From NCBI GenBank assembly GCA_902783315.1, contig CACZQK010000073.1:2498-66497 (forward strand): 64,000 nt of DNA. The letters run 5' to 3'. Origin of the DNA: an uncultured Erysipelotrichaceae bacterium. Its GTDB lineage: Bacteria > Bacillota_I > Bacilli_A > RF39 > UBA660. The position numbers and the translations under genes are program-made. Under the pieces are notes generated by a model. That model saw nothing but the letters and a program-made list of their open reading frames with translations, searched no databases and was not told where the DNA came from. Of the stretch, positions 10,694 through 63,827 are shown piece by piece; the stretch's first letter is position 1, and each line of letters starts with the position of its first letter.

Positions 10694-12151
10694 ATGAAAA
10701 AAGGTTTTGATAATGCAAAATATGTAAAAATACAAAGTGAGAAAATAAAAGAAAGATTTAAATTGTTTGACAAATTGTATTTAGAAGTTGGGGGTAAGTT
10801 ATTTGACGATTCCCATGCTGCTAGAATATTACCGGGATTTAAAAATGATGTAAAAATCAGTATGTTTCAAGAACTTAAAAATGATTTGGAAATTATTTTT
10901 TGTATTAATGCTGGTGATATAGAAAGAAATAAGACCAGAGGGGAGTATGGGATTACTTACGATCAAGAAACATTATCTTTAATTGATAAATCTAAAAAGC
11001 TTGGATTTATCGTTAATAGTGTTGTAATTACTTTATATAAAAATCAAGTTAGTGTTGATAAGTTTATTAATAAGTTGAATAGAAATGGTATTAAAACTTA
11101 TATTCATACTGCAACAAAAGGGTATCCTACTGATGTGGAAACTATTGTGAGTGATGAAGGTTATGGGGCTAATCCTTATATTGAAACTACAAAACCTTTG
11201 ATATTAGTTAATGCCCCTGGACCTGGTTCTGGAAAACTTGCTACTTGTCTTTCACAAATTTATCATGAAAATAAAAGGGGAGTAAATGCTGGATATGCGA
11301 AGTTTGAGACTTTTCCAGTTTGGAACTTGCCTTTAAGGCATCCTGTTAACTTAGCCTATGAGGCGGCAACCGCTGATTTGAAAGATGTTAATATGATTGA
11401 CTCTTTTCATTTGGAAAAATATGGTGTTCAGGCTGTAAACTATAATCGTGATATTGAAACATTTCCTATTTTAAAGAGTATTTTAAATAAAGTTTCTAAT
11501 GAAGCTGTTTATTATTCTCCAACCGATATGGGTGTTAATATGGTTGGATTTTGTATAACAGATGATGAGGTAGTAGAAGATGCTTGCAAAAAAGAAATTG
11601 TTAGAAGATATTATAATGAGTTAAATAATTATAGAATGGGTTTATGTGATGAGGATACTTATAAAAAAGTTAAATTATTGATGAATGAATTAAATATTGA
11701 TGAATATTATTTAGATATTATTAAACCAGCTCTTGAGAAAAAGAAATTAGAGGGGGACTTACCAGTAATAGCTATGAAAATTAATCGAAAGATTATTACA
11801 GGTAAGCAAACGGATTTACTTACTCCAGCTGGTGCAGTTGTTTTAAATGCCATCAAATATTTGAGTAAAATTCCTGATGATATATATTTACTTAGTCCTA
11901 ATATTTTAGAACCTATTTTAAAATTGAAAAAAAATATGGGTACTGGAGATAGACTTAATTTAAACGAAGTTTTGGTAGCACTTAGTATTTGCTCTGTTAC
12001 AAATCCTGCAGCCAATGAAGCTTTTGTTAGTCTTCGTAAATTAAGAGGAAGTGAAGCGCATGCTACTTATATTGTTACGGGTAGTGATAAGGATGCATTA
12101 AAAGATTTGAAAATTAATCTTACTTGTGAAAGTGAATTTATTGATGAATAA
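10694..12151 (+). CDS. DUF1846 / UPF0371 family protein
   Basis: RBS AAGGAGAG; N-terminus MKKGFDNAKYVKIQSEKIKER…GGKLFDDSHAARILPGF matches my recollection of UPF0371 proteins of Firmicutes. Confidence 0.6.
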   Translation: MKKGFDNAKYVKIQSEKIKERFKLFDKLYLEVGGKLFDDSHAARILPGFKNDVKISMFQELKNDLEIIFCINAGDIERNKTRGEYGITYDQETLSLIDKSKKLGFIVNSVVITLYKNQVSVDKFINKLNRNGIKTYIHTATKGYPTDVETIVSDEGYGANPYIETTKPLILVNAPGPGSGKLATCLSQIYHENKRGVNAGYAKFETFPVWNLPLRHPVNLAYEAATADLKDVNMIDSFHLEKYGVQAVNYNRDIETFPILKSILNKVSNEAVYYSPTDMGVNMVGFCITDDEVVEDACKKEIVRRYYNELNNYRMGLCDEDTYKKVKLLMNELNIDEYYLDIIKPALEKKKLEGDLPVIAMKINRKIITGKQTDLLTPAGAVVLNAIKYLSKIPDDIYLLSPNILEPILKLKKNMGTGDRLNLNEVLVALSICSVTNPAANEAFVSLRKLRGSEAHATYIVTGSDKDALKDLKINLTCESEFIDE

Positions 12152-12172
12152 AAATTATTCTTATTTTAGGAG

Positions 12173-12484
12173 GTGAAATTTATAAAAATAATAACGATTT
12201 GCGGTAGTTTGAAATTTCAAAAAGAAATGATGGAGGAAGCTCAAAGATTAGCTTTTGAAGGTAATTGTGTTCTTACACCAATTTATCCAGTACCAATAAA
12301 CTTTGAAGTAACCAGTGAGATACTATCTTTACTAAAAGTAGCTCGTAAAGAGAGAATAAGAATGTCTGATGCCATATTTGTTATTAATAAAGATGGTTAT
12401 ATTGGTGATAGTACTATATTAGAAATAGAATATGCAAAATCTTTACATAAAGAGATTGATTATTATGTAGATGTATTGAATTAA
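12173..12484 (+). CDS. Small nucleoside 2-deoxyribosyltransferase-like (DUF4406-like) protein; start codon uncertain
   Basis: Motifs ICGS…, DAIFVINKDGYIGDSTILEIEYA (conserved Glu in the E(I/L)GYA context); RBS TAGGAGG overlaps the annotated GTG and there is no canonical start 6-9 nt downstream. Confidence 0.4.
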   Translation: MKFIKIITICGSLKFQKEMMEEAQRLAFEGNCVLTPIYPVPINFEVTSEILSLLKVARKERIRMSDAIFVINKDGYIGDSTILEIEYAKSLHKEIDYYVDVLN

Positions 12485-28721: not shown

Positions 28722-28867
28722 ACTTTTACGTAGTATTAGATGATGAAGCATTGCATATATATTATGTTTGAGATATAGTGAAAGGGTATTATTGTGTTTA
28801 ACTAAATACAAGGACAAAAAATATAGTTATCTACTTTAGAAAAACATATTGACTATTTAGTAATAAG

Positions 28868-28889
28868 ACGGATAAAAGATCCGTTTTTT
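28868..28889 (+). terminator. Rho-independent terminator
   Basis: ACGGAT-AAAAG-ATCCGT followed by TTTTT. Confidence 0.5.
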
Positions 28890-29144
28890 GTTTGGTATAA
28901 TAAATAGTAAGAAAATCATTATATTACGATATTTTAATAATTTGGATATTGCTATTTGTTTTTATAGATCGTGTCAGCTACTATTAGTGTCTTTTTATCT
29001 GATCTCTTTGATTCATTTGCAAGATATTATTTTTGATATTCTAGAGAACTCCACTTTTTTCTTAAACGCTTGTTTATGATGCTAAAGTGTTTTTTTTCTT
29101 GATTATTTTAGTATAATGTGATAAATTATTAATGTAATTTGTAT

Positions 29145-29221
29145 GGCCTGTTGGTGAAGTGGCTTAACACATTACCCTCTCAAGGTAACATTCACGGATT
29201 CGAATTCCGTACAGGCTACCA
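29145..29221 (+). tRNA. tRNA-Glu, anticodon CUC (77 nt including encoded CCA)
   Basis: Manual cloverleaf: acceptor GGCCTGT/ACAGGCT, D-arm GTG…CAC, anticodon stem TTACC/GGTAA with loop C-T-CTC-A-A, T-arm ACGGA-TTCGAAT-TCCGT, discriminator A, CCA. Overall close to Firmicute tRNA-Glu, but the anticodon is CUC rather than UUC. Confidence 0.75.
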
Positions 29222-29232
29222 ATTAAATATTA

Positions 29233-29257
29233 CTAGATTTTGTATCTAGTTTTTTTT
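29233..29257 (+). terminator. Rho-independent terminator of the tRNA gene
   Basis: CTAGAT-TTTGT-ATCTAG followed by T8. Confidence 0.7.
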
Positions 29258-29259
29258 GT

Positions 29260-30090
29260 GTGCGTGCATGGCATATATCTAGGCAGTCAGAATAAATAAG
29301 TAGGAAAGATTAGCGTATCTAAAGAAAAGTCCTATAAAAGATATTAGTCTATGAGCGAAATTAGAAAGGATGAAATAAATCAAGATAAACTAATAGGAAT
29401 AATAAGAAGAACAATAAAAGAGGTAATCTTGTATCTCTAATTAGGAAATCCTTACAAAGTAGAGTAATGGAAAATGGCGTATTACAACCAACTAAGAAAG
29501 AAACTCCACAAGGAGGAAACTTAAGCCCCTTATTATCTAATATAATGCTTAATGAATTAGATAAAGAACTTGAGGCAAGAGGACTTAACTTTGTTAGATA
29601 CGCCGATGATTGTTTAATAATGGTTAAATCAGAAAAAGCAGCAAATAGTGTTATGGAAAGTATAACTAAGAAATTAGGATTAAAAGTGAATGTAGAAAAG
29701 AGTAAAGTAGCAAGACCAGATGATATAAAATACCTAGGATTTTGATTTTACAAGAAAATGAATCAGAATATATGGAGACCAAAACTACATATTAAGTCAG
29801 TACATATGAAAAGTATATTAACAAACATAGACAAAAATATTCTTAGAAAACTGGAATATTACATAGAGATGCATATGTGATAGTAAACTCTAGAAGAGGT
29901 TATTATCACATTGCTCATACAAGAGTACTAGAAACTGCAATAACCAAAGAAAGATTAAATAAAAGAGACCTAGTAAATTCGATAGACCACTACTTAAAAG
30001 TTCATATTATTACAAATTAAAACGCTGTATATCGAACAGTACGTATGATGGTGTGAAAGGGTATCATATCAATAAATGTCGAAAACTTTT
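29260..30090 (+). mobile_element. Internally deleted, decayed group II intron (probably bacterial class C type), inserted immediately after the terminator T-run; 3' boundary approximate
   Basis: GTGCG at 29260-29264 (group II 5' consensus GUGYG) directly after T8. Truncated RT ORF (RT domains 5-7) and frameshifted X/maturase remnants (…FYKKMNQNIWRPKLHIKSVHMKSI…, …YYHIAHTRVLETAI…). A GAAA-tetraloop hairpin near 30030-30060 is a possible domain V remnant. Confidence 0.55.
29428..29745 (+). pseudogene. Group II intron reverse transcriptase fragment (RT domains 4-7 only)
   Basis: LIRKSLQSRVMENGVLQPTKKETPQGGNLSPLLSNIMLNELDKELEARGLNFVRYADDCLIMV…KVNVEKSKVARP..YLGF; YADD active-site motif. No RT domains 0-3 upstream (an open low-complexity frame runs back to the TAA at 29386-29388, then junk). 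Confidence 0.7.
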
Positions 30091-30171
30091 ATTGAAAATT
30101 TACTCTATTTGATTGTAAAATTATGTTTAAAATTTTTAATACTGACCATATTAATTATGGGAGGAATATAA

Positions 30172-30363
30172 ATGACACAAAAAGAATTATTATATGTTGA
30201 AGATGCTATTTGTCATGAACAAATTATTATTAAAGTATTAGTAGATGCTTTAGAGCAATTAGAGGATGAAAAATTAAAAGTTTATATGGAAAATCAAAAG
30301 AAAACTCATGAGAAGATGGAAAAGAAATTGAAGAAGCTTTTGGAGGGAATAAAAAATGAATGA
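30172..30363 (+). CDS. Small CotF-like / ferritin-like spore coat associated protein (first of an overlapping pair)
   Basis: RBS GGGAGGAATATAA; 63 aa, helical; stop overlaps the next start (ATGAATGA), suggesting coupling. Confidence 0.4.
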   Translation: MTQKELLYVEDAICHEQIIIKVLVDALEQLEDEKLKVYMENQKKTHEKMEKKLKKLLEGIKNE

Positions 30364-30604
30364 TCAAACTTTATTAAATAATTATTTGTTAATATTAAAA
30401 AGTACTGTAGAAGTGTATGTTCATGGTACTTTAGAAAGTGTTAATCAGAAGGTAAGGGATTTGTTAAAAGAACATTTAAATGAAACTATCCAGATGCAAT
30501 CAGATACTTATGATATAATGACTGATTATGGTTGGTATCAAATCAAAAATGTTGATTCTAAAGTAATTGGGGATACCCTTACTAAGTTAGATAAAGGAAA
30601 TTAG
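30356..30604 (+). CDS. Spore coat protein F (Coat_F domain) family protein
   Basis: LLNNYLLILKSTVEVYVHGTLESVNQKVRDLLKEHLNETIQMQSDTYDIMTDYGWYQ matches the CotF pattern (…L.E.H.LQ…gWY). Confidence 0.55.
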   Translation: MNDQTLLNNYLLILKSTVEVYVHGTLESVNQKVRDLLKEHLNETIQMQSDTYDIMTDYGWYQIKNVDSKVIGDTLTKLDKGN

Positions 30605-46041: not shown

Positions 46042-46623
46042 ATGAAAACAGTAAAAAATGATGTTTCTGATGAAATGGTAATAAAAAATTCAAGATTTAT
46101 TACTGTCATTAAAAATATAAATAGTGCTAACAAAGAAGATATAGAGATTATATTAGAAAATGTAAAAAGACAGTATCCTAAAGCTACACATTATTGTTAT
46201 GCTTACATTTGTAATGACGAAAAAAAATGTAGTGATGATAACGAACCTAGTGGGACTGCTGGATTTCCTATGCTAAATGTTTTAGAAAAGGAATGTCTTA
46301 GTAATGTAATTGTTATTGTTGTTCGATATTTTGGTGGTATTAAGCTTGGCGCTGGAGGCTTGGTTAGAGCTTATACAAAAGCGGTAACAGAAACTTTAAA
46401 AAAAGCTTTTTTTATCGAACTTGTTTTAGGTTATAAAATAAAACTTCAATTTTCATATAATAATCAAAAACAAGTGGATTATCTACTAGGTGGAAAAATC
46501 TTGGAAAAAGATTACTCCCAAGATATTACCTATATTGTTTTAATAAAAAAAGAAGATTTAGAAAAATTTTATGATTATTCTTATGAAATATTAGAAGAAT
46601 TATACATAGAAGATTATTCATGA
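46042..46623 (+). CDS. yigZ: IMPACT/YigZ family protein (UPF0029)
   Basis: KNSRFITVI…ATHYCYAY…DDNEPSGTAGFPML…VVRYFGGIKLGAGGLVRAY. Confidence 0.8.
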   Translation: MKTVKNDVSDEMVIKNSRFITVIKNINSANKEDIEIILENVKRQYPKATHYCYAYICNDEKKCSDDNEPSGTAGFPMLNVLEKECLSNVIVIVVRYFGGIKLGAGGLVRAYTKAVTETLKKAFFIELVLGYKIKLQFSYNNQKQVDYLLGGKILEKDYSQDITYIVLIKKEDLEKFYDYSYEILEELYIEDYS

Positions 46624-47313
46624 CTAAGTGTTAATGAGGTTTTTTAATTTTTTGATGACCTTCTTTTCAATTCTTGAAATATAAGATTGCGAAATTCCTA
46701 ATTTTTTAGCTACTTCTTTTTGTGTATATTCTTCATTTCCTAATAAACCATATCGCAAAATCATAATTTCCCTATCTCTATTTTTTAGACCTAATATTTC
46801 TTGAATCATTAAATTGCGATTATCTTTTTCTTCAATATTTTTTGGAACTTCATCTTTATCTGTTCCAATTACATCTTCTAAATGTAATTCATTACCATCA
46901 CAATCATATGAAAGTGCTTGATCAATACTTACTTCACATTTTACTTTTTTATTTTTTCTTAAATACATTAATATTTCGTTATCAATACAACGGGAAGCAT
47001 AAGTTGCTAATTTTATATTTTTGTTGCTGCTAAACGTATTTATTCCTTTGATGAGTCCGATACTTCCAATACTTACTAAATCCTCTAAATCTACTCCTGT
47101 GTTTTCATATTTTTTGGCTAAAAATACTACTAGACGTAGGTTGTGTTCTATTAATTTGTCTTTGGCAAACAAATTCCCGGTTTCTTTCAAATGAATGTAT
47201 TTTTCTTCTTCTTCCTTAGTTAACGGTTCTGGCAATATGTCTGTTGCTCCTACGTAAAAGCAACTACCTACTTTTAAAAATATTTTTTTTATGAATTGTA
47301 TTAGTTTTAACAT
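46624..47313 (-). CDS. sigE: RNA polymerase sporulation sigma factor SigE (pro-sigma-E)
   Basis: Near-collinear with B. subtilis SigE: …YVGATDILPEPLTKEEEEKY…NLRLVVFLAKKYENTGVDLEDLVSIGSIGLIKGINTF…KLATYASRCIDNEILMYLR…SQSYISRIEKKVIKKL. Confidence 0.9.
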   Translation of the reverse strand: MLKLIQFIKKIFLKVGSCFYVGATDILPEPLTKEEEEKYIHLKETGNLFAKDKLIEHNLRLVVFLAKKYENTGVDLEDLVSIGSIGLIKGINTFSSNKNIKLATYASRCIDNEILMYLRKNKKVKCEVSIDQALSYDCDGNELHLEDVIGTDKDEVPKNIEEKDNRNLMIQEILGLKNRDREIMILRYGLLGNEEYTQKEVAKKLGISQSYISRIEKKVIKKLKNLINT

Positions 47314-48038
47314 AATTCCTCCTTTAATTTATTGGGTAAAATACAATTGGCATCTGAAAAGGCAAATTTTTCAGTGGCTATGCCAATTAAACAGTGTGAT
47401 ATTTTTTTGTTGTTTATTATTATTTTGTCTGGTCTAATACATGGGATAATTCCCGAAGTATTTAAGGCTTTATATGGTACATAAATAACTTTCTTTAGTG
47501 GTATTTTTAAATTTACTAGAATGACACTTTCTTTCTTGATTGGAGATACTAGTCTATTTCCTGTATCAATAAAGCCTTCTAATAAATATTCTTTTTTTTG
47601 ATATACTATTTTTACCAAATATTTGTTTACTATTTTTTCTTTATAACTTAAAAACTCTTTGCAAAAAATAAAAATAATAAAAGCACTACCAATAATCAAA
47701 AGTAAGTAGTAGCAATAAATGTTTTTGGAAAAATCTAATAAATAGAAACTACCTCCTAATATGATGCTTATCAAATAAAAATAACCGGTATTTTTTATTA
47801 TATTCTTTTTTCCAAAACTTGCATAATTTATAAAAAAGCTAAGCACTATTTTTAGAATAATTAGTGTAAAATTAGATATTTTGATAAATAAAAATAAAGT
47901 TGTACTAGTTCCTATAAGGGATCCAAATATTAATCTAAAATTCTTTTTATTTATTTTTAGTATTCTTTTAGTTCCGTAAAGAATCATAAAATCAAGTAAA
48001 AAGTTTAAAAGAAAAATAAACTCATAATATATTTTCAT
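47307..48038 (-). CDS. spoIIGA: Sigma-E processing peptidase SpoIIGA
   Basis: Five N-terminal TM helices and a C-terminal aspartic protease motif GFIDTGNRL; located immediately upstream of sigE. Confidence 0.85.
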   Translation of the reverse strand: MKIYYEFIFLLNFLLDFMILYGTKRILKINKKNFRLIFGSLIGTSTTLFLFIKISNFTLIILKIVLSFFINYASFGKKNIIKNTGYFYLISIILGGSFYLLDFSKNIYCYYLLLIIGSAFIIFIFCKEFLSYKEKIVNKYLVKIVYQKKEYLLEGFIDTGNRLVSPIKKESVILVNLKIPLKKVIYVPYKALNTSGIIPCIRPDKIIINNKKISHCLIGIATEKFAFSDANCILPNKLKEELC

Positions 48039-48093
48039 CTTATCACCAAAAATAGTATAAAAAGAAAAAAGCGATTTTATTGTCGCTTTATCG

Positions 48094-48423
48094 TTAAATT
48101 TTCTTTTTTTTCATGAAAATTTTTATACAATATGATAAGAATATAGCCATGATGCCTACAAATGTCCATTTTAAAATAGTATTTAATAATGGTATTTTGA
48201 TGGTATACTTATTAATAATATCAAACATATTCTCGGGGAAATATTTACCTATGATGAATGCTACATCTTTTAGACCTATATTATACTTTATAAAAGTAAG
48301 AATTCTTAAAAATATTTCTATGATTGCCATAAGAAAGACAAAGGAGGAAAAGTGTTTGAAAAACATCAATACAACTACAATTAATATAATTAATACAATT
48401 AAATCTATATACATACCACACAC
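48094..48423 (-). CDS. Small membrane protein, hypothetical
   Basis: 109 aa, three hydrophobic segments. Confidence 0.4.
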   Translation of the reverse strand: MCGMYIDLIVLIILIVVVLMFFKHFSSFVFLMAIIEIFLRILTFIKYNIGLKDVAFIIGKYFPENMFDIINKYTIKIPLLNTILKWTFVGIMAIFLSYCIKIFMKKKKI

Positions 48424-48481
48424 TCCTACTCTATTAATACTTTATCATAAATTCAAACAAAAAACAATTAAAGAAATATCT

Positions 48482-49129
48482 TTAATTGCTTCCTCGAGTT
48501 TTATAAAACGTTTTTGCAAGTACATCACCAGTTTTTACTTTCTCAAGAGCTTTGCCATAGGCCGCTTTGGCAAAGTTTACAGCTTGAGCATTTAACAAAA
48601 TTAGAAACTCCTTTAGATATTTAAGATTATTTAAAACTTGTTCCATTTCTTCAGGGCTAACGCTATAGAATTTTGTTGCAGATTCAAAACAACGTATTGC
48701 TATAGGATAATGGGAAAAATGCGATACAGCCATCACCGCTTCTAGTGACATACTGTCTAATGGTCGTTCTTTTGTTAATATAGAATTTTCAACATCTTCT
48801 CTATATCCCCATCCACCCCAATTTCCAAGAGATAAATATACTCCTGATTGTGGTTCTTGGACAATAATACCCCCAACTTTTTTTAATGGCAAAATCATTT
48901 TAGACACATCAAAATCGACATCTTCTACCTCATTCATCGCCCTATAACCTGGTACTAACTTTCTAAAATGTTCAAAACTAATCTGGTCTTCAGATATAAA
49001 TGGTCTTATAATACGAAAGTCCATTTTACTAGGTTCTAAAAGAAAATTCTCACCATCCCCAATATTGCCATAATCCACTTCTTCAGCAGTAGATGGTATA
49101 ATTATATTATTCATAAAATAAATCTCCAT
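48482..49129 (-). CDS. Hypothetical protein (no motif recognised)
   Basis: 215-aa ORF downstream of spoIVB. Confidence 0.45.
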   Translation of the reverse strand: MEIYFMNNIIIPSTAEEVDYGNIGDGENFLLEPSKMDFRIIRPFISEDQISFEHFRKLVPGYRAMNEVEDVDFDVSKMILPLKKVGGIIVQEPQSGVYLSLGNWGGWGYREDVENSILTKERPLDSMSLEAVMAVSHFSHYPIAIRCFESATKFYSVSPEEMEQVLNNLKYLKEFLILLNAQAVNFAKAAYGKALEKVKTGDVLAKTFYKTRGSN

Positions 49130-49181
49130 TTCTAGTGCGTATTATAACATATTATATCGATAAATTCAAGAAAGAACTATA

Positions 49182-50162
49182 TTAATTGTCTTTTATTAAA
49201 ATTTTATCTCCTTCTTCTAACATAGTAGTAATAAATATTCCATATCCTTTTTTCACATCTTCTACAATAACATAATTTACAACCCCTATTAGTTTATTAT
49301 CTTGAATTATTGGTGATCCACTCATTCCTTGAATTATGCCACCAGCTTTTTCGAGCAAGCGTTTATCTGTAATTTCGAATAATATATTTTTACTTGTAGA
49401 ATCTTCATCTAATGAAAGAATTTGAATGGAGTAGTCTTCAATTTTATCTTTTTTTATCGACGTTCTTATAAAGGCCTCTCCTTTTTTTATGGCTTCTTTC
49501 GGAGCAACTTCTAAGGTTGCGGCTTCTGGTATTTTTTGATAAACTCCAAAAATACCTTCAGATTCATTTAGCTCAATTGTTCCAAGAATAATATTTTGAC
49601 TTATAGTAGCGTTTTTTTCTCCAGTAATACCATTTTGACTTTTCTTTATTGTTGAAACTTCCGCCTTATAAATGTTTCCGTTTTCTATTTCAAACTTTGA
49701 GAAGCTTGAGGTTTCTAGTATTTCGTGTCCTAAAGAGCCGTAGATACCGGTACTAGGATCTATATACGATAAAGTTCCAATACCTTGTATTTGATCTTTT
49801 ACATAAAGCCCAGTTTTTAGAATGTTGTCTTCCTTTTTTAAAGTTAAAGGAATAGAAATTAATTTGTGACTTCTTTCTACTGTAAAATTGTAAGACATTT
49901 CTTCACTCAATGAATTATTTAATGAATTAATATCTTTTATTGGTTGATTATTTACACTTTTTATTATGTCTCCAACTTTAAATCCGGCGTTTTCTCCTAT
50001 GTTTTTACCAGATACAGGATAGAATCCTACTATATAGACACCGTTTGAATGGACCTCAATTCCAATTGTTTCTCCACCTACAATTACTTGGTTTGAATAT
50101 GCAAAAACATTGAATGGAAATAGTAATAAAAGTAAGATTGTAATAATTTGTCTTTTTTTCAT
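49182..50162 (-). CDS. spoIVB: SpoIVB peptidase (S55 serine protease with PDZ domain)
   Basis: Signal/TM N-terminus, PDZ region (GFKVGDIIKSVNNQPI), catalytic region GGIIQGMSGSPIIQDNKLIGVV; collinear with B. subtilis SpoIVB. Confidence 0.85.
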   Translation of the reverse strand: MKKRQIITILLLLLFPFNVFAYSNQVIVGGETIGIEVHSNGVYIVGFYPVSGKNIGENAGFKVGDIIKSVNNQPIKDINSLNNSLSEEMSYNFTVERSHKLISIPLTLKKEDNILKTGLYVKDQIQGIGTLSYIDPSTGIYGSLGHEILETSSFSKFEIENGNIYKAEVSTIKKSQNGITGEKNATISQNIILGTIELNESEGIFGVYQKIPEAATLEVAPKEAIKKGEAFIRTSIKKDKIEDYSIQILSLDEDSTSKNILFEITDKRLLEKAGGIIQGMSGSPIIQDNKLIGVVNYVIVEDVKKGYGIFITTMLEEGDKILIKDN

Positions 50163-57102: not shown

Positions 57103-57234
57103 TCATTTTTTTGTTGATTCTATTTTATTTTCTTCATCATAACTATCATATTCATCACATTCATGGGCTACTCTTAGAGAACAATAAATAAATAAGATGA
57201 AAAAGCAAAGTGCAGATATTAAAAATAGTTTCAT
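57103..57234 (-). CDS. Putative 43-aa small membrane protein (MKLFLISALCFFILFIYCSLRVAHECDEYDSYDEENKIESTKK)
   Basis: Minus-strand ATG after GAAAGGGAGAG; N-terminal TM plus acidic tail; immediately upstream of mutS; below the track size cutoff. Confidence 0.3.
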   Translation of the reverse strand: MKLFLISALCFFILFIYCSLRVAHECDEYDSYDEENKIESTKK

Positions 57235-58132
57235 AAACTCTCCCTTTCTCCCAATGAATGTTGTTTTATCATATTTTTTATTATATGTAAAACTTAGAAT
57301 TTTATTAATTTAGTCACTATTTTTTATGAATTTTTGTTTTTCATTTAAAGGAAAAATTGCTATTGCAAAGAAAATGTTTGTTAAAATACTATTTTTACTA
57401 TATTTTGTGTATATAGAAAAAGGAAATACACTTAATCTTAACTTATTAAAGTATTTCCTTCATGTTTTAATTATAACACATTTTCTTATCGTTGTCAAAA
57501 AGTAGTAACGTGAATAGCATGTAATTGGTTAGAAAACTTACTATCAATGGTATATTAAATTAGTTTTCTCTTTTACAAATGTATAACAATTTATATACTT
57601 TAATTATAAAGTCTTGTTAATTGATTAATTAAAATGCCATTTTAATGGTAATAGTAGTAAAATATTTTACCAATTCAATATTCATGTTTTATTACTTTAT
57701 ATTCGTCAATTTCTATCAATATAAAAGATATTATATTAATAATAATTAAGTTTTATATTATTAAATAATTGTTGTCCCACTGTTTATAGATCTTACTTGT
57801 CCTGTGGTACTAGTATCTTCTGCAAGCTATAATACACATTTTGCAATGTCGTTTGGTTCCGTAATTTTGTGTGGGGGTTTTTCTTTTTTTATGCTTTCTT
57901 ATTCATTATCAGTTAAGTCTTTATTTAGGTCTGTGTTCATTCCCCCCGGGAGCAATAGAATTAGTTCTAATGTTTTCTTTTCTAAGGGCTTTGTAGTTGC
58001 TTATCTTAATAATAATACTTGCTTTTTTATTATATTTGATACTTTTTAATTCTAATATTCAATGAATTGTTCTATATAAAAAACTACTACTTTGTATTAA
58101 TGTTATGAATACTTTAATTCATTATGCTTTTT

Positions 58133-59128
58133 TTACCAACCTGTCCATGAAAAATGCATGTAATCTTTTGCAGAATTCCAATCACCACCCCAATAAAATC
58201 CCTGTTTGGCAAAGGCTTTAACTACATCTTCATTAACAACGTAAGGGTTGTTTCCGTCATCTTTTGGGTTTGGTCCTGAATCTACCATAGGATTATCATC
58301 ATAGTTTATATCAATTGTTCCACCATAAGCGTGATCAGATAATCTACTGCCACTTACTGTACTTCTATATTCGTATGCATCTGTATTATTTGGTTTTATT
58401 GGATATTTCATATCAGTAAGTTCTCTAAACACATTTTGATAGTTTTGTTCTAAGTTTATATTTACTTTTATTTTCATTTTATCTTCTTTTTCTCCATCCC
58501 AGTATGGAACCTCAATGTAATCCATATTACTGCTATCTTCTCCACCAATTGCATTAATTCTTCGGCTGCGTTCATCTTTATCTACTCGGGAATGTGCCTC
58601 AATTGCTGAAGAGGAGGCCAATACAGATGCTGTTCCTCCTGTGCTTTGGAAACTTCCAACTGCAGATACAGAACTGCTACTAGATGAGGCAGTTAACTTA
58701 ACAGACGAAGCACTTTGCAAGTTTGCTTCAATTTGAACTTTTTTTTCTTCCATTATTCTGGTATATTTATCGATTTCAGTTTTAGCTTGATTCATATCAC
58801 TTTTAGCTCTACTCATACCAGCAGAGTCATTACAGTTGGCAGCACGATTATAATAGTCAGTAGCTTTTCCATAATTATCTTGGGCAATTTTCAAATTATC
58901 TTTTGCATTCTTATATTCCAAATATAAATCACAAGCGGTAGCAAATGCGTTCATACAACTTTCTAATGCACTTTTATATTCTGAAACAAATTCTTCTGCT
59001 TTTGGAGAAAAAGAATCATAAGAAGGGCCTTGCCAAGATCCAGCTAAACTCCCTGTTTCTGAACTATAATTTGACAAACTAGAACTAATAGAACTTAAAT
59101 CACTATGAACTGTACCACTACTTACCAT
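58133..59128 (-). CDS. Two-domain protein: N-terminal WXG100/LXG-like helical region, Ser-rich linker, C-terminal peptidase M15 (VanY-like zinc D,D-/L,D-peptidase) domain
   Basis: N-terminus …SLAGSWQGPSYDSFSPKAEEFVSEYK… (W-x-G between two predicted helices, no signal peptide). C-terminal M15 motifs SDHAYGGTIDIN (SxHxxGxAxD) and GFYWGGDWNSAKDYMHFSW (D/ExxH). Confidence 0.7.
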   Translation of the reverse strand: MVSSGTVHSDLSSISSSLSNYSSETGSLAGSWQGPSYDSFSPKAEEFVSEYKSALESCMNAFATACDLYLEYKNAKDNLKIAQDNYGKATDYYNRAANCNDSAGMSRAKSDMNQAKTEIDKYTRIMEEKKVQIEANLQSASSVKLTASSSSSSVSAVGSFQSTGGTASVLASSSAIEAHSRVDKDERSRRINAIGGEDSSNMDYIEVPYWDGEKEDKMKIKVNINLEQNYQNVFRELTDMKYPIKPNNTDAYEYRSTVSGSRLSDHAYGGTIDINYDDNPMVDSGPNPKDDGNNPYVVNEDVVKAFAKQGFYWGGDWNSAKDYMHFSWTGW

Positions 59129-59456
59129 TAAATCACCACTTTCTTAACAATTTTCGATTTTTCTAACATAATAGCCATAGTAAATGAGGTTTATCTGTAC
59201 CTCTTTGTTTCTTTTAATCTCTATTATGATTATAAATAAATCCTACCACACAAAACAACAAATGTCCATCCTATTTCCGCAAGTGTTAATTTTTTTGACT
59301 GTAACTTATGGGTAAAAAATACTAGATAGTTTGATATTTTTTGTTCACTTGTTTTTTATTATCTATTTTATAATGAAATTGTATTTTGTAAATAAGTTAA
59401 ATTTAAAGCTATCATAAGTAAAGAATTCTATTTTGTTTTAAACAATTTTAAAAATG

Positions 59457-59490: not shown

Positions 59491-62400
59491 CTACTCTATT
59501 ATGTAAGGAGTCTCATAACTTCCGTTTCCATCTTTGTAATAGGTATTAGGTTTCATTGAAACAACTGGGCGAAGTCCCTTTTCATAATTCGTATGATACA
59601 TTGAAATATTTCCATTTGCTAAAATAAATGCCACTTGGACAGTCCCTTTGCCATAACTACCACTAACAGTTAAATAGTATGGTGACATGGTCCAATAATC
59701 AAATCCTGACTTTCTGGCGTTCAAACCTAATAAATAGGCTTCTTGGTAAGATAATAATCCTACTGGATAAGTAAGTTTTCCATTCCCGTTATCAGGGCTC
59801 ACAGTAAATCTGTCAGCCACATTTTCACATGATAATCCTGCGGTATTAAAATAGGCTGGATAAAACAGAGAACTCTCTTTATTCCACCCTCCTAATGATC
59901 TGATACTTCGATTGTTGCAGTATTCTGTGTCTTCTAAATAAGCCGTTTTGGAAAACATTTTTTCTTTATACCATAAATCCATTGCACTTTTTATACTTGA
60001 ACTTTCTTTATTAACATCTTCTGCTGAAAACATATTTTTTAAGGCATCTTCTACTTTTTCACCATTGTTAAGGCTGATGTAATTGGCTTGATACATAGAA
60101 TTACTGTTATTTAAATAGTTTATATAATAAACTTGGTCACATTTTCCACTTTTATTAAAACAGGTGTAATGAGTTTTGTTACTATTAATGGTATTATATG
60201 AATGTACCCAATCATAAATGGGGGCACTCTTATTTGTTAAGACATACTTTTCACCGTCTGGATTATTTGGATGATACTCAACATCATTTCCATAGACAAA
60301 TCCTACTTCAACATATTTAAGATTATTGTTGTTCACACCCACTATTTGATATAGATTTGAACAAGTATTATCACTACCTAAACATAAATAATTACTAAAT
60401 GCCATTTTTGATCTATTTTTATCCCATTCTGTTCTTTTGATCGTCGTAGCTGGAGAAGATTCATTACTAACTGTGTAGGTTCCATTTCCATTATCAACAA
60501 ATTTTTCGCCAAATGTATAATAACTTTCAAATTTTGATAGTTCTTCTCCGTTCGCAATTCTAATTGTATATGCAGTACTTCCATCTACTGCTACGATATA
60601 AAATGCATACTTTCCATATGTTGCATCAATAGATGAGCCGTTAGAGGAATTGGAAACGAGATACTTTCCAACTAATGATGTATAATTATCTGGAGAAGAT
60701 ATTTTAAATGCATCATTTAGGTTATATGTTTTTGTATTTGGAGTATTCCAATCCACACTATTGGCATAATATCTCGTTGTGTTTAAAGTTACATTTTGAG
60801 TACTCATGTTATATGTAATTGTTCCTTTTCCGTTGTATGTATAAATTCGATTATACATAAATCCCGCATAGGCAGGAGAACTATTCGAAGTATTATAGGT
60901 TGTGCTTCCAGCCGAAGCATAAGGGACTTCACTATTTAATGAAATTTGCGTAAAATTATTCCCGCTATTGTGACTTTCAATATAATACAAGGTTTTACAA
61001 GAGGTGGTTTTATTTCTGCAAGTATATTTTCCTATTAATTCAGACGGTTTGTTTTCGTCATACGTATATAAATCTTCTAAAATAAATGCTCCATTGCTCA
61101 GTGTATAACTGGATGCGTATTTATATGATGTTGCTAAGGTAGAAGAACTCTTTGAACCATATCCTTGGTGAGCTTGGCGGTTTTTTCCACATTCATTGTT
61201 TTCATCAACTTCACCATTGTATAGAAGTTTGACGCCTCCCGTAGCTGTAGTTCTTACCATCTGCCAACAGATTCCATTAAATAAAACGTTGCTTTTTGAG
61301 GCATCACTCATGGAATTATAATAATATATTTTATTATCATCTGTTAAACCATTTTCAGAATATATTGAAGCAATATAGTCTATAGTTGCATCTCTTTTTA
61401 TTATATCATATAAAGTTCTTGCTATATTAACTGTATATGCAGAGCTTACTGTACTTTTTTCATCCGACTTTTTTGCTCTAATTATGCCATCACTTTCAAA
61501 TAAAACTGTTGTTTCTTTACTATCCACGATAACTTCTTCGTTATTATCTTTTATATAAGAACATTTATATTCTTTGCAATCACCGAAGTCAATGACGACA
61601 GTACTTTTTTTACCATTTGCTTTTTCTGTAAAGGTGGGCTTGTCTATATCTAGGGTGGATGCTGTAATTATTTTGTTTGCACTACCCTCCTTGGAAGATA
61701 CTTTAACCATAATATTATAATTAGTTATTAACTCTAAATCTTTAAATGTATATGTACTTCTTTCTGCAGTTTGATTAGATTGTTCAAACCAGGTATTTCC
61801 ACCATCTATTGAAAATTCATACTTGTCAATTTTTGTAGAATCTCCTGCAATTCCAGCATCGACTTTAACAGTAATACTATATTTAGAACTTGTCGTTGAA
61901 ATGTTTTTGATAAATGGATGTATACCGTCTGTAAAATATCCTACTATAGATTCTTCACTTCCATCTATTTTTGCGTAACTTTTATCTATAAATGAGTTAT
62001 CGTATTGTGTACCATTTCCTCCAACAAGGTTTGTAGCGTTTAGAAACATTTCTGCAAAAGCAGTCACATTATCTGTCACAAATGTAGGAGATGCATAGAT
62101 TGTTTTTAAAAGATTGCAATTGGAAAACATGTTTGACATATCTGTTACTTTATTGGTGTTAAAGTCTTTTAGATCAAGTTCAGTTAGACTTCTGTCATTA
62201 TGAAATAAATGCGACATGTTGGTAACCATACTTGTATTAAACAAATTGTTAAAAGTTATTTTTTTTACTTTTGGAAAATCAGCGAACAAATAAGAAGAAT
62301 CGTTATTTCCTAATACTCCTCCTTGACCCGCGATATAGAGTTTTTTTTCTTCTCCATTTTCTAAAATCCAGGCAATAATACTTTCATTTTGTTTTTCAGA

Positions 62401-63519
62401 CAAATCCCATACTGTGATATTGTCTACTTTTTTGGGGACCGAAAGTGAAGTGTCTGCTAAATCTATGAATTCAATAGATGTTATTGTATTTCTTATTGAA
62501 GCATTGTGAAAGTCTGGTGCATTATCATTCCATGAAAAGCCTGATATATAATCACTATAACTTCTTAAGATAGGAATTGTTTTTTTCCATTTCGCTATAA
62601 TTTTAATATCTTTATAAATTGGATTGTTCGGATTAAAAGAAGTTCCATCTTCATATTCCCATCCAATAAATGTATATCCATCTTTTGTTGGGATTTCTAA
62701 TCCTTTTATAGGAGATCCAAACTCACTGTTAATTTTTTTTTCATCCTCATCAATTACATAGGTAATGATTATTTTATCATATAATCCTATTGTGGTCTTT
62801 AACGTCATATTAAATAATATTGTAGAGGCATTAACAAGCATTGTGTTTAAAATGATTCCGATGACTATCAATGTTGCTATTTTAAATGTGCTTTGTATTT
62901 TTCTTTTCTTTTCTACTATGATAGCAAGTATTAAACCAATTGAAGATATAATTAAAAAAATATAACTCTTATTTCTTTTGTCTCCGGTAGTTGGATTAAT
63001 AAGAATTTCCCCTTCTTTTTTTTGATTGTCTTCTAGATATTTAATCGTAAATTTGACATTATTTGTTTGATTTCTTTTTGAAGTGTCTATCAGTTCATTC
63101 TTGTATATTACCTTCACTATAAAGTCTAATGAAGATTTGGCATTTATTCTTTTATTCTCATGAGGATTGTATTGATATTCTATATAGGGGTTTGAATTGT
63201 CATCTATTATTTTTAATATTGTTATGTTTTTATTTAAAGTACTATTTATATCTAGTTTATAAATTACATAATCATTTAGTTTATGAAATGTAATCGTACT
63301 CATAATTTCATCTGCACTAAAGTTGGTAATATCCCCTGTCGTACTTTCCGATTTTTCAGTAATTGTTACTCCTTTTATAGTAAACGGTAAATCTGAGGCT
63401 AATACTACTATATTTAAAAGCAAAGCTACTACAAATATAAAAATAAGTATTAATGTTATATAACTGATTTTTCCTTCTTTAAATATATGATTCTTTTTCA
63501 TCTTTATAAATCGCCTCAT
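59491..63519 (-). CDS. Giant (1342 aa) multidomain cell-surface protein. N-terminal TM/signal, an internal sortase-B-like sorting signal, a Listeria-Bacteroides (Flg_new) repeat, DUF285/BspA-like LRR repeats, an FN3-like domain, and three C-terminal Cys-pair repeat modules
   Basis: Signal/TM (ITLILIFIFVVALLLNIVVLA). Internal NPTTGD plus hydrophobic helix plus KKRK at aa ~178-215. DGYTFIGWEYEDGTSF…IIAKWKK. FNTSMVTNMSHLF…NKVTDMSNMFSNC (DUF285 pattern). YEFSIDGGNTWFEQS. Repeated KYTCRNKTTSCKTLYYI / NYLCLGSDNTCSNLYQIV / HYTCFNKSGKCDQVYYINY. Confidence 0.8.
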   Translation of the reverse strand: MRRFIKMKKNHIFKEGKISYITLILIFIFVVALLLNIVVLASDLPFTIKGVTITEKSESTTGDITNFSADEIMSTITFHKLNDYVIYKLDINSTLNKNITILKIIDDNSNPYIEYQYNPHENKRINAKSSLDFIVKVIYKNELIDTSKRNQTNNVKFTIKYLEDNQKKEGEILINPTTGDKRNKSYIFLIISSIGLILAIIVEKKRKIQSTFKIATLIVIGIILNTMLVNASTILFNMTLKTTIGLYDKIIITYVIDEDEKKINSEFGSPIKGLEIPTKDGYTFIGWEYEDGTSFNPNNPIYKDIKIIAKWKKTIPILRSYSDYISGFSWNDNAPDFHNASIRNTITSIEFIDLADTSLSVPKKVDNITVWDLSEKQNESIIAWILENGEEKKLYIAGQGGVLGNNDSSYLFADFPKVKKITFNNLFNTSMVTNMSHLFHNDRSLTELDLKDFNTNKVTDMSNMFSNCNLLKTIYASPTFVTDNVTAFAEMFLNATNLVGGNGTQYDNSFIDKSYAKIDGSEESIVGYFTDGIHPFIKNISTTSSKYSITVKVDAGIAGDSTKIDKYEFSIDGGNTWFEQSNQTAERSTYTFKDLELITNYNIMVKVSSKEGSANKIITASTLDIDKPTFTEKANGKKSTVVIDFGDCKEYKCSYIKDNNEEVIVDSKETTVLFESDGIIRAKKSDEKSTVSSAYTVNIARTLYDIIKRDATIDYIASIYSENGLTDDNKIYYYNSMSDASKSNVLFNGICWQMVRTTATGGVKLLYNGEVDENNECGKNRQAHQGYGSKSSSTLATSYKYASSYTLSNGAFILEDLYTYDENKPSELIGKYTCRNKTTSCKTLYYIESHNSGNNFTQISLNSEVPYASAGSTTYNTSNSSPAYAGFMYNRIYTYNGKGTITYNMSTQNVTLNTTRYYANSVDWNTPNTKTYNLNDAFKISSPDNYTSLVGKYLVSNSSNGSSIDATYGKYAFYIVAVDGSTAYTIRIANGEELSKFESYYTFGEKFVDNGNGTYTVSNESSPATTIKRTEWDKNRSKMAFSNYLCLGSDNTCSNLYQIVGVNNNNLKYVEVGFVYGNDVEYHPNNPDGEKYVLTNKSAPIYDWVHSYNTINSNKTHYTCFNKSGKCDQVYYINYLNNSNSMYQANYISLNNGEKVEDALKNMFSAEDVNKESSSIKSAMDLWYKEKMFSKTAYLEDTEYCNNRSIRSLGGWNKESSLFYPAYFNTAGLSCENVADRFTVSPDNGNGKLTYPVGLLSYQEAYLLGLNARKSGFDYWTMSPYYLTVSGSYGKGTVQVAFILANGNISMYHTNYEKGLRPVVSMKPNTYYKDGNGSYETPYIIE

Positions 63520-63827
63520 ATCTTAATCATATTCTATATATATTATAGAAATAATGCCCAAATCTGGCAAGATGTTTTTTAGAGCTTTGCATTTTGTGAT
63601 GGCGTTGTAGCACTTTTTTTGAAGTAAAAATGATACTGTTTTTAAGGCGCTCCTGTTAAAAATAAAATCAAATACTAATTACTATAAGTATTATGAAACA
63701 GCCAAATAGTCAGCTAATAACATGTTAAATAACAAAATAAAAAGAGGATACTAAATCCTTGAGACTATCATCTACACAGATTGTAGCACTGTATATTTCT
63801 CAGTGTTATTTAACAATATCTTACTAT

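Follow-up and report, generated by a model that had tools for sequence, protein, structure and literature searches.

The gene examined here occupies positions 58133 to 59128 of a 64-kb stretch of contig CACZQK010000073.1 (the full stretch is called the window in the following). It encodes a protein in which a helical N-terminal domain related to the WXG100 proteins is followed by a Ser/Ala-rich linker and by a peptidase module of the M15_4 type. From these domains, and from the genes that accompany the relatives of this protein, we consider it likely that the gene encodes a peptidoglycan peptidase targeted to a type VII secretion system (T7SS) and exported by a system of the VIIb type (T7SSb) rather than by the Sec pathway. 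A preliminary description of the window, made from the sequence alone, had reported an open reading frame (ORF) at this place. A complete frame from ATG to stop is found at exactly these coordinates on the minus strand, and the plus-strand frame of the same interval contains stops throughout. The identical protein has been called on a public ENA scaffold of 74.7 kb, and the cluster of proteins at 97% identity has 9 members, the best annotation of which is "hypothetical protein".

The N-terminal domain, the linker and the peptidase module

The AF2 model (mean pLDDT of 76.6 overall, 76 to 96 across residues 11-140) begins with a first helix, a turn, a second helix of 64 residues and a third helix, followed by the linker and an alpha/beta domain (Table 1). 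The turn, at residues 31-34, corresponds to the WQG segment that the preliminary description had pointed out. Trp32 and Gly34 are invariant in the alignments of 20 and 45 N-terminal domains (A1 and A4, respectively); in the alignment of 102 representatives Trp32 is again invariant and Gly34 is kept in at least 90% of sequences.

The preliminary description had called this N-terminus WXG100/LXG-like, and it is the first half of this designation that holds. The WXG100 model PF06013 is matched by 19 of the 20 N-terminal domains (best E-value 2.2e-6), and relatives reach E-values of 2.2e-6 to 5e-7. In the PDB, the best match of the family profile is EsxA of S. aureus (2vs0, E = 0.002); WKG is aligned on WEG, the helix-WxG-helix core is in register, and at least seven further ESAT-6-like chains come below EsxA. 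The family hidden Markov model (HMM) also matches the WXG100 genes adjoining the members (E-values of 1e-5 to 3e-6). With hhalign, the alignment of the N-domain family with these neighbouring genes reaches a probability of 81.5% (E = 1e-5), in register, and reciprocally an HMM built from the neighbouring WXG100 genes (WXGa) matches the ORF of the window with an E-value of 6e-5. By these comparisons the N-terminal domain is homologous to WXG100 at the profile level. PF04740, the model for LXG, does not occur in the Pfam tables returned for the window protein at E≤1 and for ten relatives at E≤0.01. It is absent also from the 25 families most often matched by the 20 N-terminal domains (136 further families come after these), so that the LXG half of the designation is dropped and the domain is classified, on its profile matches, as WXG100-like and not LXG. 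We refer to this domain as the A tag. An export motif of the YxxxD/E type after the second helix was not evident in a check by eye.

In the C-terminal half, the Pfam family PF13539 (Peptidase_M15_4) matches residues 261-328 with an E-value of 3.5e-19 (69.6 bits for a cut-off of 25), in agreement with the M15 signature claimed in the preliminary description. The conserved residues of this half start at about residue 172. A profile of the whole module (about 160 residues) was built from the family and from relatives carrying LysM or a transmembrane (TM) segment with a lysozyme-like domain. It matches the L-Ala-D-Glu peptidase Ply500 of a Listeria phage (2vo9, E = 7.9e-11) and LysB4 (6akv, E = 2.4e-7). 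The sequence SDHAYGGTIDIN is aligned with SNHNYGVAVDL of Ply500, and DYMHF with DYPHF of both Ply500 and LysB4. The residues His266, Asp273, Asp322 and His325 are unchanged in 14/14 full-length relatives (A3), and also in the set of M15 modules (A6). The aligned SxHxxGxAxD and DxxH motifs therefore designate a zinc peptidase of the LAS fold. By this assignment the C-terminal half is predicted to be a bona fide LAS/M15_4 zinc peptidase, with His325 as the predicted third zinc ligand and Asp322 probably as the catalytic residue; the bond cleaved is probably L-Ala-D-iGlu.

The same catalytic module is shared with Ply500, LysB4 and endopeptidases of the phage T5 type. Here, unlike in Ply500 and LysB4, there is neither a phage context nor a cell-wall-binding domain, and the module has an additional N-terminal extension of about 90 residues, common to the LysM- and TM-linked relatives. 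In other proteins the M15 module is indeed located behind LysM domains, or together with a TM segment and a lysozyme-like domain (P0020, P0024, P0025 and P0027). Untagged ORFs consisting only of the M15 part (125, 147 and 233 residues) flank a tagged M15 gene at one locus (L007:9542-9919, 11293-11736 and 11756-12457); such ORFs occur likewise in L008, and also at L005:12057-12758. Cassettes that were displaced, fragments of pseudogenes or frameshifts from the assembly may account for them.

Between the two domains, the pLDDT is below 50 over residues 148-167. When the linker is counted as residues 143-182, it contains 14 Ser and 6 Ala in 40 residues, and its length and sequence differ among relatives. 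The Kyte-Doolittle hydropathy over 19 residues peaks at 0.76 in this protein and does not exceed 1.26 in any of 45 family members, compared with 2.2-3.3 for the M15 relatives with TM segments. By this measure, no signal peptide, TM segment or membrane anchor is found in the 45 members, and the first 10 residues contain no Lys or Arg in 38 of them. Both the Ser/Ala-rich linker and the lack of a signal peptide or TM segment had been stated in the preliminary description, and both are borne out.

Table 1. Positions in the window of the M15 gene and of the features of its product
Feature	Position	Strand	Details and basis
M15 gene ORF	58133..59128	-	331 aa + stop, ATG start; ORF list and translation
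Shine-Dalgarno-like GGTGA	59133..59137	-	4 nt upstream of ATG; read from sequence
WXG100-superfamily three-helix domain (aa 1-142), A-type tag	58703..59128	-	helices 12-30, 35-98 and 102-142, with WxG turn after the first
WxG turn W32-Q33-G34	59027..59035	-	alignments and register with EsxA
Ser/Ala-rich disordered linker (aa 143-171)	58616..58702	-	AF2 confidence and composition
LAS / Peptidase_M15_4 catalytic module (aa 172-331)	58136..58615	-	Pfam PF13539 and module profile
SDHAYGGTIDIN (aa 264-275), SxHxxGxAxD zinc-ligand motif (H266, D273)	58304..58339	-	unchanged in A3 and A6
DYMHF (aa 322-326), DxxH motif (D322, H325)	58151..58165	-	unchanged in A3 and A6

A family of tagged hydrolases and its association with WXG100 genes and EssC

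The family is small, rare and previously undescribed: searched exhaustively with its profile, 1.84 billion representatives contain 285 matching proteins at E≤1e-3. With few exceptions, the domain begins at one of the first six residues in the 150 matches listed. All relatives of the family derive from metagenome assemblies, and the ORF maps of the retrieved loci were made mechanically. The first homology search had found the N-terminal domain on M15_4, DUF7017, Peptidase_C39_2/C70, glucosaminidase, NlpC/P60 and M23, and at least eight types of cargo are carried by this single family of N-terminal domains. Among the 102 full-length representatives, the recognised cargo is NlpC/P60 in 19 proteins, C39_2 in 14, CHAP in 11, M23 in 9, M15_4 in 6, an alpha/beta-hydrolase of the S9/esterase type in 6, Phage_lysozyme2 in 3, glucosaminidase in 2 and NAGPA in one. 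No nuclease, NADase, deaminase or pore-former was found as cargo among these 102 proteins. The identified cargo thus consists almost entirely of cell-wall hydrolases, plus some alpha/beta-hydrolases.

The mean identity of the N-terminal domains is 53% within a genome and 42% between genomes, and pairs from one genome are up to 89-97% identical while carrying unrelated cargo. For instance, the N-domain DNA of the window gene is 95.5% identical to that of a paralogue bearing DUF7017 at another locus (L001), the cargo of the two genes being unrelated. Judged from these identities, the N-terminal domains are homogenised within genomes. A literature search for the Pfam domain 'ELLD' brought up nothing relevant.

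Concerning its distribution, the family is restricted to uncultured gut Bacilli of low GC content. A scan of the GTDB representative genomes, seeded with 7 close N-domain sequences, yielded 19 loci from metagenome-assembled genomes (MAGs). Their labels are coarse, mostly Bacilli or Bacillales, the remaining ones being Mollicutes (n = 1), Erysipelotrichaceae (n = 1), Clostridia (n = 1) and plain 'bacterium' (n = 3). Isolate names that indicate an origin point to the gut of sheep, the rumen of yak, the human gut (Hadza) or rabbit, and the GC content is 27-31% in the window and the nine loci measured. Sporulation genes are present in the window (46624-50162), in a lineage labelled variously as Mollicutes, Bacilli, Erysipelotrichaceae or Clostridia. 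The taxonomic labels of the host lineage are unreliable.

At the related loci the family genes belong to a recurring cluster, which begins with one to three A-tagged hydrolases placed back-to-back. These are followed by a 'C-type' protein (another helical N-terminal domain with an unknown domain or NlpC/P60), by three WXG100 genes (WXGa, WXGb and WXGc) and finally by one or two 'B-type' proteins, in which a WXG100-like N-terminal domain precedes Phage_lysozyme2, glucosaminidase or C39_2. Such WXG100 triplets adjoin family genes in L002/3, L009, L011-13, L016, L018, L020-22 and L024-26, and a single WXGa gene is present in L015, L017 and L028. The B tag measures about 105 residues and is WXG100-like. 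The C tag measures about 90 residues and is followed by a Ser-rich linker and an unknown domain of about 130 residues, with or without NlpC/P60 (examples of B- and C-type genes: L009:1497-3415, L011:10972-14004, L025:10870-15884 and L015:6254-7965). The presence of three types of tag beside three WXG100 genes suggests that the A, B and C tags form cognate pairs with the three WXG100 partners.

In L009 and L022 the cluster is directly followed by a gene for an EssC of 1542 residues, which passes the curated T7SSb model for EssC (TIGR03928, 957.6 bits for a cut-off of 778.4). On the 3' side of EssC there is a YukD-like protein of 84 residues and then about six helical proteins of about 100-150 residues, some of them with WxG or FxG (L009:4523-11472, L022:13882-20393, L037:10001-16999 and L039:10001-17032). 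More than 170 homologues of this EssC were detected at E≤1e-100. The 120 listed are 39-90% identical, and four of these 120 bear the name EssC at NCBI, all from 'Bacilli bacterium' MAGs. In two further EssC contexts that were inspected, the operon lies apart from the hydrolase cluster. No gene for a TM protein adjoins the EssC operon, and the T7SS operon of the lineage looks pared down.

The genes of the arrays are 15-40 nt apart, and copy number and cargo differ between genomes. Directly after members of the C39_2 type, four genomes have a homologous protein of about 180-210 residues (L018:10791-11423, L021:10785-11414, L019:10945-11484 and L026:7119-7691), with 29-37% identity for pairs from different genera. 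This partner is not found next to other C39_2 members (L002, L027 and L030). Neither a TM segment nor a signal peptide is convincingly present in it; its sole hydrophobic stretch is located outside the homologous region, in the N-terminal 40 residues or so of the two mechanically called ORFs that overlap the upstream gene. The partner may be an immunity protein or a chaperone of the cargo.

In several genomes, two genes of the FemAB family lie divergently beside the cluster, with a MurJ-like flippase on the opposite side (FemAB at L002:14267-16844 for L002/3, L011:14028-16614, L020:10521-13101, L024:11926-14233 and L028:13271-15842). In L013 and L025 the flippase side is the same, and one divergent ORF of comparable size (about 440 residues, not checked against Pfam) takes the place of the FemAB pair. 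FemABX-like proteins (the Lif and Zif immunity proteins) protect against lysostaphin and zoocin A, and the adjacency of the FemAB genes may be meaningful or mere synteny. In L005 and L007 the gene directly preceding the M15 arrays codes for a TM-anchored protein of 261-263 residues. It was considered as an immunity protein and rejected, having no homologue in the window or at other loci.

The copy of the window and its neighbours

In the window the gene stands alone, as an 'orphan' dispersed among housekeeping genes; such single copies are common in the family. Its neighbours encode a DUF285/PARCEL surface protein, MutS, NusB, XseAB and a SpoIVB-type peptidase (Peptidase_S55). Other orphans are P0030 and P0003, and orphans lie beside metG-tatD in L032 and beside gpmI in L030. 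Two orphans are linked to a cluster through their origin: P0033 shares its two assemblies with the P0016 cluster, and the orphan L019 belongs to the same MAG (bin.67) as the EssC-linked cluster L022, the N-terminal domains being 89% identical. The position of the M15 member varies between species, close to mutS in the window and close to a GH94 gene in L034.

The preliminary description had placed a surface protein of 1342 residues upstream in the same orientation. This DUF285/PARCEL protein is indeed encoded on the same strand, 362 nt away, with a weak stem-loop and several promoter-like sites in between. Contig L010 (sheep-jejunum MAG, RGIG5904), 98% identical to the window, lacks the part corresponding to 59888-63773. 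This gap of about 3.9 kb covers most of the 1342-residue gene and is either a strain-level indel or an artefact of MAG assembly. As the surface-protein gene is missing from L010, it is not functionally tied to the M15 gene, and a functional link between the two was rejected.

Downstream of the M15 gene, 898 nt of AT-rich DNA contain only short low-complexity frames, none of 90 residues or more (for example an 81-residue ORF with a GTG start at 57804-58049). An intrinsic terminator was sought on the 3' side of the gene and not found, and the search of the window against Rfam, including these 898 nt, gave no match. Beyond the gap, the minus strand carries a perfect sigma-70 consensus (TTGACA-17-TATAAT with TG, 57498-57470) and, just upstream of mutS, an ORF of 43 hydrophobic and acidic residues with a strong ribosome-binding site (57103-57234).

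L018 and L021 are syntenic with the alaS-to-sigE region of the window (74% nucleotide identity over alaS). In these two loci a whole cluster of hydrolase and WXG100 genes (L018:9269-14496 and L021:9273-14333) is located between the sigE-like gene and a gene for a protein of about 193 residues. A cluster was looked for at this syntenic sigE-alaS position of the window and is absent, the two genes abutting at 46623/46624. Elsewhere in the window, a 92-residue ORF (29467-29745) contains the reverse-transcriptase motif YADD, typical of the enzymes of group II introns or retrons. Its surroundings (about 28800-30600) have no long ORFs and no Rfam intron match at the gathering threshold, which suggests a degraded retroelement.

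Proposed function and comparison with known systems

The preliminary description had seen in this protein a WXG100-type secretion domain fused to an M15 peptidase without Sec signal, and hence a candidate substrate of a T7SS. This core reading is supported by the matches to PF06013 and to the neighbouring WXG100 genes, by the alignment with EsxA and by the linkage of relatives to WXG100 triplets and, in L009 and L022, to EssC. We propose that the A tag would pair with a small WXG100 protein into a helical bundle recognised by EssC. The folded enzyme would be exported and would cut the L-Ala-D-iGlu bond (or a neighbouring bond) outside the membrane. The orphan of the window would depend on partners and on an essC located elsewhere in its genome, by analogy with the MAG bin.67, which holds both the orphan L019 and the cluster L022.

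Several observations weigh against export by a T7SS. The window protein by itself scores below the thresholds of the WXG100 models (13.2-15.3 bits for 27.3 with PF06013; 18 bits for 44.85, E = 0.0025, with TIGR03930). The fold searches gave generic coiled-coil matches, none of them significant, and are uninformative, as expected for long helical rods. EssC directly adjoins the family cluster in only 2 of about 20 loci, its operon being separate elsewhere, and Pfam recognised neither EsaA nor EssA nor EssB beside EssC in the lineage, which makes the apparatus atypical. Finally, within the 64-kb window, to which all absences of genes in this organism refer, there is no EssC, no WXG100 partner and no gene of the B or C type. 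The preliminary description had already noted that EssC and an immunity-like gene are missing from the window, and no immunity-like gene was found.

If the protein is exported by a T7SS, two answers may be given to the question of whose wall is cut. According to the first, which we consider less likely than not though slightly ahead of the second, the enzyme is self-directed, as a housekeeping autolysin acting in growth, separation or turnover, or as a helper that opens the wall in the manner of EssH or FlgJ. The cargo of the family is mostly the usual repertoire of autolysins (glucosaminidase, lysozyme, NlpC/P60, CHAP, M23 and M15), and no immunity gene accompanies the gene of the window or the arrays. 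The orphans are located in housekeeping neighbourhoods, and in several genomes the main cluster lies between the MurJ-like flippase and FemAB. No wall-spanning component similar to EsaA was recognised beside EssC, and the passage of T7SSb substrates through the wall is termed an open question in reviews (PMC13492133). The rapid shuffling of cargo and the variation of copy number are unusual for core enzymes, however, the alpha/beta-hydrolases and the C39-like cargo are not obviously directed to the wall, and the M15 member has no conserved position. Moreover, we know of no precedent for the export of housekeeping autolysins by a T7SS.

A stronger form of the self-directed answer, in which the pared-down T7SS of this lineage of gut Bacilli would be a dedicated exporter of its own wall hydrolases, appears to us rather doubtful. 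This exporter may consist of EssC, the YukD-like protein and about six WXG100-like proteins, with the A, B and C tags matched to their partners. With a T7SS devoted to wall remodelling, the lack of immunity genes would be explained as well.

According to the second answer, that of the preliminary description, the protein is an antibacterial T7SS effector, a polymorphic toxin that would lyse neighbouring Gram-positive cells by cleaving their peptidoglycan. We regard this as somewhat unlikely. The interchangeable C-termini on one N-terminal domain (window versus L001) and the variation of copy number and cargo between genomes are in its favour, and the M15-only fragments that flank the family gene in L007 and L008 resemble displaced cassettes. 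The follower of the C39_2 members (L018, L019, L021 and L026) is a candidate immunity factor, and the flanking FemAB genes recall the Lif/Zif type of immunity. Precedents are known for T7SS and T6SS (type VI secretion system) effectors, among them the mycobacterial T7SS arabinanase toxin EatA (PMC13444075). On the other side, the 898 nt downstream of the window gene leave no immunity-like gene, none is seen beside the other orphans, and the spacing in the arrays leaves no room for one. The nucleases, NADases and pore-formers usual in polymorphic toxins are lacking in the cargo. The L-Ala-D-Glu bond of peptidoglycan is universal, so that self-protection through wall chemistry would be hard. The C39_2 partner itself is devoid of TM segment and signal peptide, unlike immunity proteins against extracellular toxins (PMC13444075). 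Because no immunity gene is present, that of effector or toxin is only a candidate role.

Improbable in our view is an explanation outside the T7SS, in which the protein is a cytoplasmic or lysis-released hydrolase, such as a CwlC-like mother-cell enzyme of a spore-former, and its N-terminal domain has a regulatory or oligomerising role. The window does contain sporulation genes (sigE-like, spoIIGA-like and the SpoIVB Peptidase_S55) and no T7SS gene, the WXG100 scores of the protein itself are sub-threshold, and the coiled-coil hydrolase Cg1735 (8aud) appears at rank 26 of the Foldseek search. This match, like all the structural ones, is non-significant, and the invariant WxG, the WXG100 homology at the level of profiles and the recurrent association of family members with WXG100 genes and EssC argue for a T7SS substrate. 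In the FtsEX-controlled hydrolases CwlO, PcsB and RipC, which are regulated through a coiled coil, a long helical N-terminal domain is joined, as here, by a linker to the domain that hydrolyses peptidoglycan. These proteins possess signal peptides, which are lacking here, and no WxG. No sequence similarity to them was detected in the PDB profile search, and no ftsEX-like ORF was recognised by eye among the translations of the window, a profile search for it not having been made.

A remnant of a phage endolysin or tail lysin, or a wall hydrolase of a conjugative element, is hardly credible. Endolysin families of PHROGs match the C-terminal domain (E-values of 1e-8 to 1e-4), its nearest solved relatives are phage endolysins, and the combination of M15, TM segment and lysozyme-like domain in P0020, P0024, P0025 and P0027 is typical of conjugative elements. 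However, the N-terminal domain has no match in INPHARED (50,697 phage genomes) or IMG/VR, no phage or conjugation gene is located near the window gene or any family locus, and the protein has neither a cell-wall-binding domain nor a TM segment. A phage origin of the tag was accordingly rejected, and the phage lysin remnant and the autolysin exported by a holin route, both raised as alternatives in the preliminary description, find no support.

Returning to a T7SS substrate, a close known architecture is that of the LXG toxins of T7SSb (TelA-E, EsaD, TspA, and YxiD and YobL of B. subtilis). As here, their N-terminal domain is elongated and helical and turns at (W/L)xG, a Sec signal is lacking, and the enzymatic cargo at the C-terminus is interchangeable; small WXG100-like helical proteins are encoded alongside (here at the related loci) and an EssC-type ATPase is present in the lineage. 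The LXG domain is longer (about 200 residues, compared with about 140 here), and its model PF04740 is not returned for the members. Their cargo consists of nucleases, NADases and membrane toxins (PMC10765036), and not of wall hydrolases as here. The cognate immunity gene that lies downstream of LXG toxins is lacking here; within the family, a gene conserved on the downstream side is limited to the C39_2 subgroup. Likewise, genes for small helical partners of the Lap type are lacking beside the window copy, the related loci having the three WXG100 genes. The WXG100 proteins themselves (EsxA/ESAT-6; PF06013, TIGR03930) are stand-alone hairpins of about 100 residues, whereas the present protein of 331 residues has one helix more and continues with a linker and an enzymatic domain.

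EssH of S. aureus, a CHAP enzyme, carries a Sec signal peptide, whereas the protein of the window has a WXG tag and no signal peptide. EssH is a wall hydrolase functionally tied to T7SSb, as is proposed here (PMC13059805, PMC13492133). The T7SSb reviews cite it as an accessory hydrolase and do not describe it as a T7SS substrate, and they mention CHAP genes in some T7SS loci without functional link.

The T7SSb substrates characterised so far fall into WXG100 proteins and toxins of the LXG type, the latter comprising nucleases, NADases, lipases, a lipid II phosphatase and proteins that depolarise membranes, and reviews from 2023 and July 2026 contain no substrate that is a peptidoglycan hydrolase (PMC10765036, PMC13492133). 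A survey of polymorphic toxins from 2012 assigned the NlpC/P60 and glucosaminidase toxins to T6SS/PVC and not to T7SS. The claim of a new effector class, made in the preliminary description, has to be softened in view of EatA and of the NlpC/P60 cargo predicted for M. abscessus in the EatA paper of 2026 (PMC13444075). EatA, an endo-D-arabinanase toxin secreted by the mycobacterial ESX-4, is the nearest conceptual precedent, with a helical N-terminal domain, an envelope hydrolase and genes for small helical partners. It belongs to a T7SSa of Actinomycetota, with its Tap partners immediately upstream and the lipoprotein immunity gene EatI downstream (PMC13444075). The present system is found in Bacillota with an EssC of the T7SSb type. 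In comparison with EatA, what would be new is a different family of tags, the Bacillota hosts, a predicted peptidoglycan target and the lack of an immunity gene.

The gene of the window thus points to a distinct and compact family of WXG-type tags, the recognised cargo of which is essentially all wall hydrolases. As the tag is short and modular, it could help to export folded enzymes from Bacillota. If these proteins are weapons, they would be a Gram-positive counterpart of the amidase and muramidase effectors of T6SS, apparently without cognate immunity. If they are self-directed, the T7SS would have a housekeeping role in the remodelling of the wall, rather than acting only as a toxin gun.

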